A DNA stretch of 64,000 nucleotides from Candidatus Bathyarchaeia archaeon. GTDB lineage: Archaea; Thermoproteota; Bathyarchaeia; Bathyarchaeales; Bathycorpusculaceae. The DNA lies in NCBI GenBank assembly GCA_049522695.1, contig JBEKNP010000001.1, forward strand, positions 4,261 to 68,260, in the 5' to 3' direction. Made by a program: the position numbers and the translations under genes. Positions 58,655-63,126 of this stretch are shown piece by piece. Positions within the stretch are counted from its first letter, which is position 1; each line of letters opens with the position of its first letter. Below the pieces are notes generated by a model. The model made no database searches. It was not told the DNA's origin and was given only the letters and a program-made list of their open reading frames with translations.

Positions 58655-59323
58655 CTATTTTTTTCTTGATTTTTCCAGTTGGCAGAGCATTTCAAACATT
58701 ACTTTTGCTACAACGACTGCTGTTACTCCTTGGTTGTAAATTGGCGCAATCTTCATTACATCAAAGCCTAACACGCGTTTATCGCACAAGGCACAAGCAA
58801 TGTATAGTAGGGCGGTTGTGGTGATTCCTTCAGGCTCAGGGTTCTGCACTGCAGGAGCAAATGCCGGGTCAAGTACGTCCATGTCTACTGTTAAATACAC
58901 GCTTTCGTATAGCAGAAGCTACTGTTTTAACTGTTTAGCAATCCGATTTGAGCCTTGCTTGATTATTTGCTGAGAAGTAAAAAAAACTCTACCCCAGCCT
59001 TCTTGGAAAAAGATAGTTTCTCCTTGCACGCTGAGCGCGTGCCAACCGCAAAGATTTTCGCCGGCTTCACTTCCCCCACTTATCAACTGCATAAACGTGG
59101 TATGAGAGAGCGTTGAACCTAAAAATTCGCAACGCAAATCCAAATAAGCATTAAATCTTATAACCGCTGTTTTCGCTGCCCTAGCGCCTAAACCCTTCGC
59201 AACTCCAAGCGTAATCGTGTGTTCTCCGCCTAAAACTACTGGCATTTTCCCAGCAGCCAAAATATCCTCAACCACAAGTCTAGTTATGTCAACCGTTTTC
59301 TGGGCATCAGTTGACACATGCAA
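58655..59323 (-). pseudogene. speB: Agmatinase (ureohydrolase) pseudogene lacking its N-terminus
   Basis: LGGEHTIT, FNAYLDLR (metal ligands D and H mutated), SHTTF, LTVDMDVLDPAFAP, PEPEG; several frameshifts. Confidence 0.82.
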
Positions 59324-59329
59324 GTCACC

Positions 59330-59863
59330 AGTTTTTCGGCTAAAGCGTACAAATCGCCCTTTATACGTTTTTCTAAGCCTACAGGTATTATTAGTTTTAC
59401 CCTGCGTCCCAGAACAGCGGGCAAGGCTAAACCTATGTTTCCAGCTTTCGGGTGACCAATTAGGATAGCTGTTTGTTTATGCTCTAAATCCAAAGCATTT
59501 GCGCCTTTTAAGATAACGTCGCCTTCTTTGAGAGAGTCAACTACGTCCTCTATTGTTTTGCCTTTTTGCCAACCGCCTTGGGTTATCACTACGTTGCCTA
59601 GAAATCTGCTTTCGTCAGCTAGTTGCCCTTCCACAGTTACGGTTTTGTTCGGAGGCAGGGTTATTCCGCAGAAAAAATGTTTTCTAGAGAAATCATGAAA
59701 TTTTCTAGGTTTTTGGTATTTCTTCCGCGATGTAGCCGTTTGTTGTTCCAGCAACAGTTACGAGCGTGTCATCTTTAATCGCATTTAAAATTGCGGGGTA
59801 ATTTGCTAATGCTTTGGCGATTAAATGTTTTCCTGCAGAAGGTGTAATGAGGAACTGTTTCAC
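59330..59863 (-). pseudogene. Hypothetical gene, frameshifted and 3'-truncated by fusion into the speB remnant
   Basis: [18 protein letters not shown]...[10 protein letters not shown] then frameshift; LKGANAL and IIPVGLEK downstream. Confidence 0.6.
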
Positions 59864-59994
59864 TTCAGTTAACTCCTTTTTACACTTAGCGTGTATTCTG
59901 CAGTGAATTATAATAATTGCGATTTGAAGAAAGATGATAAAAAATAAAAAAAGAAAAATATAAAGACAAAGTTAAAGATGTTCAGCTGGTGAGC

Positions 59995-60135
59995 TTAATA
60001 TCTTCTTGGTGGTCTTCGTTTTGCGTAGCACTCACGGCAATAAACTGGCCTGGAGCCGTCTGGCTTGAAAGGAACGTCACATTCTTTTCCGCAGTCAGCG
60101 CAGGTTGCCTTGTGCATTTCTCTGTTATTATACAT
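59995..60135 (-). CDS. Stand-alone CxxC-x17-CxxC zinc-ribbon protein (46 aa, missing from ORF track)
   Basis: MYNNREMHKATCADCGKECDVPFKPDGSRPVYCRECYAKRRPPRRY; AGGAG RBS upstream. Confidence 0.88.
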   Translation of the reverse strand: MYNNREMHKATCADCGKECDVPFKPDGSRPVYCRECYAKRRPPRRY

Positions 60136-60162
60136 TCGCTATTTCAACTCCTACTACATTTG

Positions 60163-60218
60163 CTGTGCAAAAGTTGCTTCTTGCACAGTACCTTTAACGT
60201 GCTCTCCATGCTTATAAA
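60163..60218 (-). promoter_or_regulatory. TATA box plus 5'-leader hairpin of the CxxC-x17-CxxC gene
   Basis: TTTATAAG at 60218-60211; CTGTGCAA...TTGCACAG 8-bp stem at 60163-60188. Confidence 0.55.
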
Positions 60219-60491
60219 TTGAATGCTTACTATTTTTAGATTAAACATCAAATTGTTATTTCAAACCTTTTCTAAATAGAAAGGGCAAATAAAAAAGAGT
60301 ATTTTGAACATTGTTTCATTATGATAACTTAAGGTTTGAAATTTCCTTAAAAATTCAGGAAAAATGGCTTTTTTACATTCAAGCTAATATAGGTACTCCT
60401 CGTTATATTGTAGATATTCGAGATATTTGAGAGAAAGTATAAACACTTTGCCTGCTTTTTCTCTTAACTCTAATGATATGGGAGAGGGAAT

Positions 60492-61139
60492 TTGAGACAG
60501 AAAAAATCAACATTAGGAGAGCACATTGCTCTTCTTTCAGTAAAACACAACATTTACCCCTCTGAAGTCTTCCAGGCACTTATTAAAGCAAGAGACGACG
60601 GAAAAGCTGTCTGCGGCAACCTTGCAGTTGAATATCGGGGTAAGGTGAAAGATGAAATAATTTTTCTAATAAAAAAAGACAATAACGCTGTGGCTCAGTT
60701 CAGAGTTGATGAACAATTTCTGTTGAGGAAGGATAATCCGTTCGAAAGCTGGATGAGCACTGATAAAATATGCAAAAAAATCGCTAAACAAAATACAGAA
60801 TCAGTTTTCACTGCGATTCACGATTTGAGAGCTTGTATGAAAAGGGTTAACGTTAAGGCCGAGGTTCTCGAGATTCCTAAGCCAGTGCAGGTTCACACGC
60901 AGTTTGGCAATACTATCAGGGTAGTTAACGCTTTGGTTGGAGACGAAACAGGAAAAATCAAACTCTGCCTATGGGAAGGACAAATCAACTCTGTCGCTGT
61001 TGGAAACAGCATTGAAATAAAGAATTCACATATATGCGTTTTTAGAGGCGAGAAGCAACTGCGTCTTGGAAAAAAAGGAGTTATCAGCATATTACAAAGC
61101 CCTGCTGAAGTATTAAGCAGCAGAGTCACAGTAGGATAA
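60492..61139 (+). CDS. Single-stranded nucleic-acid-binding protein (C-terminal OB fold) with ~105-aa N-terminal domain
   Basis: VNVKAEVLE, VGDETGKIKLCLW, FRGEKQLRLGK. Confidence 0.82.
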   Translation: MRQKKSTLGEHIALLSVKHNIYPSEVFQALIKARDDGKAVCGNLAVEYRGKVKDEIIFLIKKDNNAVAQFRVDEQFLLRKDNPFESWMSTDKICKKIAKQNTESVFTAIHDLRACMKRVNVKAEVLEIPKPVQVHTQFGNTIRVVNALVGDETGKIKLCLWEGQINSVAVGNSIEIKNSHICVFRGEKQLRLGKKGVISILQSPAEVLSSRVTVG

Positions 61140-61222
61140 TCCATTACTTCTATTTCTTTTTGGAGGACTATTTTTATACATGAATTAAGCATTGCGTTGA
61201 AAGAAGTGAGGTCACCAATACT

Positions 61223-61870
61223 TTGACACTTATTGTTGATGACGCAGGCAGCGGTGACTTACTTTTCGGCGTAGTAGTCGGCGCTTACCGAGAAGAAACA
61301 GGTGAATTCAAATACGATTTGATCGACGTAAGGTTCTACCAAGAAATCTTCCGCGAAAAAGAGTACCTGCAAGAATCCTCACGCATCGTTTCTAAGCTTG
61401 TCGCATGGTTTAACCTCAAGCCGGAAGAGGAAATCCACATTTGTCAAGGTTGCATCTTTGACGTGGCCGCTGAGGAACTCCGCAAAGTTTACGGAGAAGA
61501 CCGCGTTAAACGAGTCAGAGTCGTTGGCGAAGCGCAGAGACTAACAGAAATTGCTTACCTGGATGAAATCCGTAACTTAGGCTACGAGCCATTAGCTGAA
61601 CGTGAAGAAAAAAGAGGCAAAAGCTTCTTTCACATGATGCGTTGGCTTAAAGACAACCCTGAAATGCTTCGTTACGCCAAGACAGGTTGGCCACGCCTCA
61701 AGAACTACCATTTGTTTAGTCAATATCACCAAGAGCCAGTTTACGCTGCAGTTTGTAGTGATTGTGGCTGTGAATGCAAAGTGCCGTTTCAACCTCGTGC
61801 AGATCGACCTGTGTACTGTCAGAAATGCTGGCTAGTCCACAAATCTAACAGGAACGGCGCAAAAAAATAA
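61223..61870 (+). CDS. RNase HII-like fold protein fused to C-terminal CxxC-x17-CxxC
   Basis: IVDDAGSG resembles the RNase HII GVDEAGRG motif; KTGW; CSDC-x17-CQKC. Confidence 0.6.
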   Translation: MTLIVDDAGSGDLLFGVVVGAYREETGEFKYDLIDVRFYQEIFREKEYLQESSRIVSKLVAWFNLKPEEEIHICQGCIFDVAAEELRKVYGEDRVKRVRVVGEAQRLTEIAYLDEIRNLGYEPLAEREEKRGKSFFHMMRWLKDNPEMLRYAKTGWPRLKNYHLFSQYHQEPVYAAVCSDCGCECKVPFQPRADRPVYCQKCWLVHKSNRNGAKK

Positions 61871-62026
61871 CGCATTAATCTTATCATTTAATACTTTGGG
61901 TACGTTTGATGCTGGACATGAACGTATTATTTGATTATAACTCAAGCGTGTATGTGCTTTTCTTCGGCTTCCTAGCCGCTGGGCAGTACTGTTGATTGCC
62001 CGCCGTAAAGCACCGACTAAACGGCG

Positions 62027-62209
62027 TCTGAAGGGTTAATTGCGGCAAAACTCAGAATGATTAAGGCAACCATGCCACCTGAACGCGCAAATAAAGACAA
62101 AGAAGATATTAAGGCAATTTTAGCCTTCACCAAATTGAATATTATCGCTGTCAGAAAATAGGCGCAAAAAGATAAAACACTTGAAATACTAGATGCTTTA
62201 ACCGCATAG
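62027..62209 (+). pseudogene. C-terminal remnant of a nucleotidyltransferase-fold (AbiEii-like) gene
   Basis: SEGLIAAKLRMIKATMPPERANKDKEDIKAIL with in-frame TAG; no start. Confidence 0.45.
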
Positions 62210-62257
62210 TTCTTAGGCTTGAATGCTTAAATATGCTTTTTACCTATTGTCTAGTGG

Positions 62258-62781
62258 TTGTGTTTTTGTTTGACTTCTAATAGTCATATCAAGCACGACG
62301 ATGTCGTTTGGTTGGGAAAGCTGTGGGTTGTCCCAGCGGCTATTATTCGCACGGTCACTGTTTTTGTGGTTGCAGTCCTATTTATCTGGCTTGAAATTTC
62401 CTTCGGCGTTTTTCATACTATTTTGCTGGATTACCAGTTTTTGCTTGGACGATTTTGACGTCCGTTGTTATTTGGCCGCTCAGCATGTTGGGGCTACTGG
62501 TTTTTTGGGCCTCCCATATTTATGTGCTACGGAATGATGGAATAGAAATTCGACGTGGCATCATTAGGTTGCATTCGTTTGTTGTCACGCCGATGGGTTT
62601 TCGAGATTTGCTAGTTTACCAGTCTGTTGGCGGCAGAATCTTTGGCAATGGAGATATAACGCTTAATTCTCAGGGTAAACGCCAAACCAAACTTTTGCGG
62701 GTCCGCTCATCATTCGCTGTAGCTGACACAATCCGGGACATAATGGGCAAGCCTCTTGTCCGTGTGGATACTCGCGTTTAG
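62258..62781 (+). pseudogene. Membrane protein with bacterial PH (bPH_2)-like domain, one frameshift
   Basis: VWLGKLWV...TM frame joins the AGLPVFAWTILT...GIEIRRGII...YQSVGGRIFGNGDI frame if a T is added near 62418. Confidence 0.6.
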
Positions 62782-63000
62782 AACATGCCGTTTTTATTTG
62801 CAGTTTGGGCGGAACAGGAGACATTACGTCGCAGTGCTCCACTAGCTTGCCATCTCCTGCTCGGAAGACTGCATCGCTTACAAGACATGTACTGAATGCA
62901 AGAAGCGCTGCTAATCTGCTCTCTATGTATATTCATGCATGTTACATATTCTTATAAGCAGATTTCACTGATGCTCAAAGCTCTAAAAGGAGGCGGAAAA

Positions 63001-63126
63001 ATGCTGAGTAGAGATTGTGATGGCTGCACGCTCCAGCACATGTGCAGTGAACGCTACAGGCGTGTAAGCAAAGACGAGAAAGTGTATTGTCCAGATGGAA
63101 CAGCCCATTTAGTAGACCAAAACTAA
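63001..63126 (+). CDS. Small Cys-rich protein (41 aa)
   Basis: MLSRDCDGCTLQHMCSERYRRVSKDEKVYCPDGTAHLVDQN; strong AGGAGG RBS upstream of ATG 63001. Confidence 0.6.
   Translation: MLSRDCDGCTLQHMCSERYRRVSKDEKVYCPDGTAHLVDQN

Follow-up and report, generated by a model that had tools for sequence, protein, structure and literature searches.

Three neighbouring genes in the genome of a Candidatus Bathyarchaeia archaeon, and above all the protein X215 encoded by one of them, are the subject of this analysis. They lie in a stretch of 64,000 nucleotides (assembly GCA_049522695.1, contig JBEKNP010000001.1, positions 4,261–68,260 of the forward strand), called the window below, whose coordinates are used throughout; the genome measures 2.8 Mb in 130 contigs and is 96.5% complete. 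X215 is a member of the RNase H-like superfamily and falls outside RNase HII. The overall reading, held with slightly better than even confidence, is that it represents an undescribed family of that superfamily and is probably a nucleic-acid enzyme. An earlier note, made from the sequence alone, had described the three genes – micro46, SSB215 and X215 – and all three open reading frames (ORFs) were confirmed, with 46, 215 and 215 residues. It had also proposed that they form one system built on a shared zinc-ribbon domain, with X215 as an RNase HII-like protein.

RNase H-like enzymes carry out much of the cutting and joining of nucleic acids in cells and in mobile elements. The X family has no database model and is found in uncultured archaea (Bathyarchaeia, other Thermoproteota and Asgard archaea) and in Clostridia. 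If the reading is correct, a conserved family whose catalytic aspartate is replaced by an invariant cysteine would widen the known chemistry or regulation of the RNase H fold. It would also offer a first way into the function of the small zinc proteins with the pattern CxxC-x17-CxxC, which in Methanosarcina count among the small proteins detected with most confidence. The homologs in Clostridia include those of named, genome-sequenced isolates (Oxobacter pfennigii and Thermanaerosceptrum fracticalcis), in which experiments could be more practical.

The X215 core, its family and its fold

The X215 gene (61223–61870) encodes two domains and is preceded by a putative promoter:

61223–61732, + strand: X215 core, residues 1–170, an RNase H-like domain by AlphaFold2 (AF2) model, Foldseek and family alignment
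61739–61834, + strand: C-terminal CxxC-x17-CxxC ribbon, residues 173–204 (PF23477, TIGR04272), with a basic tail extending to 61867
61162–61178, + strand: element resembling a transcription factor B recognition element (BRE) and TATA box (GGAGGACTATTTTTATA), conserved together with the SSB215 gene, its TATA part also where that gene is lacking; the putative X215 promoter

The protein begins with MTLIVDDAGSGDLLFG. The conserved motifs of its core are DDAGSG (residues 6–11), C74-x-G76, Q105...E109, W141 and K153-T-G-W156. Residues 1–170 had no match in Pfam, NCBIfam, PADLOC or PHROGs, and none of the cores of ten X-family members was matched by Pfam. A literature search found no paper on the core family or on the domain accessions.

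The protein collection yielded 1794 homologs of X215, of which the best 120, at 81–98% identity to it, all have the ribbon. X215 is encoded in at least 116 species genomes, and the fusion of core and ribbon is not unique to this genome. A search of 1.84 billion representatives with the core alone gave 190 clusters at E-values up to 1e-3, in which the distant members are 23–40% identical across the whole 160 residues. Those with names come from Bathyarchaeia, Jordarchaeales, Hermodarchaeota and Clostridia (Thermanaerosceptrum, Oxobacter and Sporosalibacterium). In alignments of 30–52 sequences that are 22–81% identical, the invariant residues are D6, D7, G9, G11, G16, C74, Q105, E109, W141, K153 and W156.

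The family is small and patchy: besides half of Bathyarchaeia, it is found in Clostridia, in Asgard archaea and in some other Thermoproteota. In an even draw of 121 Bathyarchaeia genomes (the even sample) the core was present in 60, and it was also present in 23 of 151 sampled Thermoproteota genomes, 14 of which are outside the class Bathyarchaeia. There are one or two copies per genome, and two paralogs are frequent in Bathyarchaeia. The genome studied here has such a paralog (contig C52, 8024–8575, − strand), a protein of 183 residues with no ribbon, in which the first motif reads IDASGWG – the second aspartate (D7) is replaced by alanine – and C-S-E replaces the C-x-G of the family.

The architecture of the family varies. 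Among 77 full-length representatives at 50% identity, 52 consist of the core only and 14 are extended at the N-terminus. One, from the Bathyarchaeia clade, has the CxxC-x17-CxxC ribbon, while four, members from Clostridia, have a different ribbon of the form CxxC...HxxC. Long, basic tails rich in proline are found in several, and one is a fusion with isopentenyl phosphate kinase. An RNase HIII-type N-terminal domain was considered for the extension of about 85 residues found in the 14 representatives and was rejected, as Pfam at E-values up to 10 and a PDB profile search both returned nothing. One metagenomic member (P0208, 575 residues) has an intein-like insertion of about 350 residues, with intein-like ends and a LAGLIDADG-like domain, exactly between ...IDDSGWG and SLVGGTGIG. 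The insertion falls directly behind the GxG motif, and this position suggests a critical role for the motif. Intein insertion at such a site is typical of nucleic-acid enzymes.

The AF2 model of the core, made from a 52-sequence alignment, has a predicted local distance difference test score (pLDDT) of 95.6 and a predicted template modelling score (pTM) of 0.90. It begins with three strands (b1, residues 2–8; b2, 17–23; b3, 28–34), followed by a helix (47–62), strand b4 (70–74), a helix (77–90), strand b5 (95–98), a helix (103–118) and a helical sub-domain (131–168). The predicted order of elements, b1-b2-b3-a-b4-a-b5-a, is the topology of the RNase H-like superfamily. All Foldseek matches were within this superfamily, including those in the viral library, which were RNase H-like members only. 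The best E-values against the PDB were for retroviral integrase cores (about 5e-4, with a template modelling (TM) score of about 0.43 and about 120 residues aligned), and the highest query-normalised TM-scores (0.50–0.54) were for Bacillus (Bst) RNase HIII (E-values 1–3e-3). The RNase H fold on which the earlier proposal depended was in this way found by AF2 and Foldseek together.

In RNase H-like nucleases the catalytic carboxylates are on strand 1, at the end of strand 4 (an aspartate) and on the helix after strand 5. When the X215 core is compared by topology, not by superposition, D6 and D7 are on strand 1, C74 is at the end of strand 4, and Q105 and E109 are on the helix after strand 5; W141, K153 and W156 are in the C-terminal helical sub-domain. 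The carboxylates at D6/D7 and E109 are invariant, while the end of strand 4 has the invariant C74, not a carboxylate. The earlier remark that later carboxylates are not obvious holds for the motifs of RNase HII but not for E109, which is invariant across the family.

What the X215 core may do

The favoured explanation makes X215 an enzyme that would need a metal, act on a phosphodiester of nucleic acid and be distinct from the housekeeping RNase HII. D6, D7 and E109, with C74, would form the metal site on the RNase H-like scaffold, and the helical sub-domain with W141, K153 and W156 would help to hold the substrate. The C-terminal ribbon and basic tail would serve as a substrate-binding, tethering or targeting part. 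A polyanionic substrate would fit the way in which zinc ribbons and basic tails were gained repeatedly in the family, though it does not fit the kinase fusion. The invariant C74 could point to another metal, to redox control or to another kind of chemistry.

Several observations weigh against this explanation. A cysteine at the position of a catalytic aspartate is ill-suited to a two-metal nuclease, so the chemistry may differ. In Hermodarchaeota, five near-identical proteins of one cluster, from different samples (P0198 and P0392-P0395, 442–450 residues), have the X core N-terminally fused to isopentenyl phosphate kinase (AA_kinase, E-value 2e-43), a fusion that points away from nucleic acids. 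No recurrent gene partner was found for the distant homologs in Clostridia and Jordarchaeales, for an N-terminally extended bacterial member or for unfused Bathyarchaeia members. The core is accessory and not essential, because half of Bathyarchaeia do not have it. Finally, the likeness to RNase HII is confined to 39 alignment columns at an HH probability of 36%.

Some of the same observations are the case for a rival in which the core, though of RNase H fold, is no nuclease: it would have another chemistry (for example one dependent on cysteine, or one acting on a small phosphorylated metabolite) or be a non-catalytic binder. The invariant cysteine in a catalytic position speaks for this rival, as do the kinase fusion, the lack of nucleic-acid genes reliably near the distant homologs, and the change of D7 to alanine in the paralog of the same genome. 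Against it are the canonical nuclease positions of the strand-1 acidic pair and of the glutamate on the helix after strand 5, the ribbons and basic tails added repeatedly, and an intein-like insertion at a site typical of nucleic-acid enzymes. With these considered together, a core that is not a nuclease is judged unlikely.

The zinc ribbon, micro46 and SSB215

The other features of the locus, upstream of X215, are:

59995–60135, − strand: micro46, stand-alone 46-residue CxxC-x17-CxxC zinc-ribbon protein (ORF, PF23477, TIGR04272)
60164–60187, − strand: conserved hairpin of 10 bp with which the predicted micro46 leader begins (TGTGCAAGAA...CTTTTGCACA in the RNA sense; RNAalifold, 32 loci)
60211–60221, − strand: TATA-box-like element of micro46 (CTTATAAATTG on the + strand), near-invariant in intergenic alignments of 15 and 9 loci; the putative micro46 promoter
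60383–60393, + strand: TATA-box-like element of the SSB215 gene (GCTAATATAGG), in an invariant block, CTAATATAGGTA, at 15 loci; the putative SSB215 promoter
60429–60463, + strand: purine tract GAGAGAAAG and pyrimidine tract GCTTTTTCTC in the SSB215 leader, both invariant at 24 loci
60492–61139, + strand: SSB215, 215 residues, a 100-residue N-terminal domain and an oligonucleotide/oligosaccharide-binding (OB) fold of the crenarchaeal single-stranded DNA-binding protein (SSB) type at about 105–200 (PF21473, PDB matches)

The two CxxC-x17-CxxC domains noticed earlier, in the 46-residue gene and at the C-terminus of X215, both match the models for this ribbon and have the exact cysteine spacing. 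The X215 ribbon scores 52.6 bits against PF23477 (E-value 4e-14) and 52.0 bits against TIGR04272 (4e-14), with cut-offs of 27 and 36, and its four cysteines are invariant in 25 X215 orthologs. Against the same models and cut-offs, micro46 scores 72.6 bits (2e-20) and 73.5 bits (8e-21). It ends in a basic tail, KRRPPRRY, is 83–100% identical among the related loci that carry it, and has a paralog in the same genome (contig C43, 2581–2781). The microprotein belongs to a multi-copy, highly conserved family of small zinc proteins. There are three PF23477 copies in the whole 2.8-Mb genome, two of them within 1.9 kb at this locus; the chance of two copies being so close is, by the author's estimate, roughly 0.4%.

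Both the fusion and the recurrent, though loose, proximity of ribbon and core make a functional link between the two plausible, at somewhat less than an even chance. Seven of the 63 core genes typed from the even sample are fused to the ribbon; all seven are in the GTDB family of the window and they are monophyletic in a tree, and the ribbon would have become fused to the core in this one Bathyarchaeia family. In three genomes of one genus of another family (f40), an unfused ortholog has a divergent 55-residue CxxC-x17-CxxC gene about 330 nt upstream. This arrangement was considered as a widespread split form of the fusion and rejected – among 62 metagenome relatives the pair is kept only in one that is 99% identical, and 46 other unfused relatives do not have it. 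Six of the 62 have a ribbon gene within 3 kb of the core, arranged in four or five different ways, which would be expected by chance at under 1% (the author's rough figure).

The ribbon genes also have a distribution of their own. Such genes occur in 79 of the 121 even-sample genomes, 54 of which also have the core and 25 of which do not; the remaining genomes divide into 6 with the core only and 36 with neither. Because those 25, out of the 61 genomes with no core, have the ribbon without the core, the microprotein is independent of the core. The free micro46 may share or compete for the target of the fused ribbon, or work with that ribbon, but it also exists in its own right. A bolder version, of low probability, is a two-part system in which an Asp-Asp-Cys-Glu enzyme with the RNase H fold would be targeted by the ribbon in cis or in trans. 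In that system a soft metal or redox sensitivity would be possible, and the abundant free ribbon would tune access to the substrate.

The leader of micro46 contains a hairpin in which four pairs have compensatory changes. 97.2% of its cells are paired and 21 are compensatory, values reached by none of 500 shuffles, and its G-U pairs are compatible with the mRNA strand only. The hairpin is followed by an invariant ribosome-binding region, AGGAGTTGAAA, and the leader is common to both paralogs, as it is also found upstream of the gene on contig C43. The hairpin may be a stabilising or autoregulatory element. An Rfam scan of 59800–62300 at E-values up to 1 found no known RNA element.

The N-terminally extended SSB of the earlier description is confirmed in SSB215, where an OB fold follows 100 residues for which no model or structure match was found. 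The OB fold scores 40.1 bits against PF21473 (E-value 4e-10, cut-off 24), and its PDB matches are 1o7i (Sulfolobus SSB) and 2mna, both at 8e-13, and human SOSS-B1 at 2e-4. The protein is under all NCBIfam cut-offs for SSB/RPA equivalogs (best 77 bits versus 188), and its C-terminus, ...SPAEVLSSRVTVG, has no acidic tail. The combination of N-terminal domain and OB fold is a paralogous family with three copies in the genome; the other two, both full-length, are 53% identical (contig C12, 39140–39751) and 49% identical (contig C74, 354–965), and neither is near any ribbon gene. In the leader of SSB215 the only variation in the tracts at 24 loci is a G/A change that preserves pairing. The tracts may be a hairpin or may serve to mask the Shine-Dalgarno site, and with invariant arms there is no informative covariation at these loci. 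The pyrimidine tract could instead pair with the GGGAGAGGG ribosome-binding site at 60480–60489, a possible translational switch.

Whether the three genes belong together was examined at 80 related loci, in which X215 is 62–93% identical and which are nearly all labelled Bathyarchaeota or Bathyarchaeia. The rival explanation, that of the earlier proposal, is that micro46, SSB215 and X215 are one module for handling RNA or R-loops or for stress, with the free ribbon competing with or regulating the fused one. Two of the three PF23477 copies of the genome being 1.9 kb apart is consistent with this, as is the order micro46/SSB/X215, seen in 30 of the 80 loci (the SSB gene is between the other two in 30–31). 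In 9 loci with no SSB gene, micro46 is still divergent from X215 at a distance of about 300 nt, and the family with the unfused core also has a divergent microprotein. Binding of single-stranded DNA by the OB fold would suit a role at R-loops.

Other features of the loci are against a three-part module. In the intergenic alignments a separate conserved TATA-like element precedes each of the three genes, so they are taken to be separate transcription units, with transcription starts predicted at about 60190 (− strand), 60415 and 61200 (both + strand), and an operon of SSB215 and X215 was rejected, as the TATA element of X215 is conserved with or without the SSB gene. The SSB gene is absent from most loci, is parted from X215 by more than 1 kb of other DNA in 8, and has its two paralogs away from ribbon genes; it is a lineage-specific paralog inserted between micro46 and X215, not a necessary part, and the case for its membership in a module is weak. 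A stand-alone microprotein is within 4 kb upstream in 37 of the 54 loci whose X215 is at least 75% identical and in none of the 17 below that value. The unrelated downstream neighbours dn176 and dn76 show the same fall-off of synteny. Five of the seven fused copies have no microprotein within 1.5 kb (flanks of up to 2.5 kb in the even sample), and the 25 of 61 core-less genomes with micro genes and the 6 core genomes without one point the same way. The three-gene system as proposed is partly, and weakly, supported, and a single RNA, R-loop or stress module is distinctly unlikely. The part of the earlier proposal that is supported is the link of core and ribbon, by fusion and recurrent proximity; the membership of the SSB is not.

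A defence or phage origin was also rejected, as neither PADLOC nor PHROGs had a match for micro46, SSB215, X215 or two distant X homologs.

The neighbouring genes on the two sides differ:

58655–59863, − strand: pseudogene remnants (tblastn of the intact ortholog of locus L016, frame translations)
62896–63126: dn76, 76-residue cysteine-rich protein, conserved beside X215 in many relatives

The first remnant is a conserved 257-residue gene, intact in loci L005, L010 and L016, that is frameshifted and 3'-truncated at residue 178; the intact L016 ortholog matches it in two frames. The second is arginase/agmatinase-like, with a missing N-terminus and an in-frame stop. The description of the three genes as intact amid pseudogenes is therefore correct for the upstream side only; the genes downstream appear to be intact and have conserved counterparts in relatives. 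Paralogs of dn76 are scattered over the genome in at least 6 copies (contigs C62, C127, C44, C36, C47 and C69).

Comparison with known systems

X215 resembles type 2 RNase H (PF01351) in its RNase H-like fold with a C-terminal helical sub-domain and in its acidic pair on strand 1, A-G-x-G and second hydrophobic strand (DDAGSG here, DEAGRG there). The RNase HII-like first motif proposed earlier is real in this respect. An hhalign comparison of the X family with 23 Thermoproteota RNase HII sequences aligned IDDSGwG..GGv.IG with VDEAGRG..GPlVIA at a score of 32.9, over 39 columns and with a probability of 36%, while 199 column shuffles had a mean of 13.0 (standard deviation 2.5) and a maximum of 25.6. 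The X-family profile against PDB sequences reached RNase HII 1eke at an E-value of 0.13 and 1uax at 3.4, both non-significant and in motif I only. G9 and G11, which correspond to the glycines of the GRG-like motif, are invariant or nearly so, and the residue between them is S, W, T, V or I, never R.

The identification of X215 as RNase HII does not hold. Neither PF01351 nor the NCBIfam models of type 2 RNase H matched X215 or ten family members, while PF01351 detects the canonical RNase HII of the same genome (contig C18, 25860–26462) at an E-value of 4e-48. The D-E-D-D set and DSK motif are not found in the X family – the third aspartate is a cysteine and there is no conserved DSK-like motif after strand 3 – though E109 may, by topology, stand for the fourth RNase HII residue. 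The core is also smaller (170 residues versus about 200–300), and the conserved Q...E, W and KTGW motifs are foreign to RNase HII.

A further rival, a very unlikely one, takes X215 for a genuine if divergent type 2 RNase H that would cut RNA:DNA hybrids or single embedded ribonucleotides: the aligned first motif with both GRG glycines, a profile similarity above all shuffles, the best query-normalised TM-score being that of RNase HIII, and a C74–E109 spacing of 35 residues, versus a corresponding 30 in the Thermococcus enzyme, are outweighed by the 39-column limit of the alignment, the missing PF01351 match and DSK motif, the invariant cysteine, and a canonical RNase HII in 31 of 31 sampled Thermoproteota, this genome included.

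The retroviral integrase and DDE cores share another feature with X215 – from the residue at the end of strand 4 to the helix glutamate there are 35 residues, as in D,D35E. The identity is 12–16%, and X215 has a cysteine for the second D. Unlike DDE mobile elements, the X core is present in one or two copies per genome, has stable synteny in related loci and has no PHROGs match. Membership among the DDE transposases and integrases was rejected on the cysteine and the lack of mobile-element hallmarks, and the resemblance is at the superfamily level only.

The micro46 protein and the tail of X215 match TIGR04272 and PF23477, as do small zinc proteins of Methanosarcina mazei. The CxxC-x17-CxxC homologs in M. 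mazei are abundant small proteins, and zinc binding has been shown for two of them by inductively coupled plasma mass spectrometry (PMC12704099). No report was found in the literature of a fusion of CxxC-x17-CxxC to an RNase H-like core, or of a conserved 5'-leader hairpin.

In its OB domain SSB215 is a homolog of Sulfolobus SSB (PF21473; E-value 8e-13) and of human SOSS-B1 (2e-4). Unlike Sulfolobus SSB, SSB215 has the extra N-terminal domain of 100 residues and no flexible acidic C-terminal tail, and proteins of its type number three paralogs in this genome.

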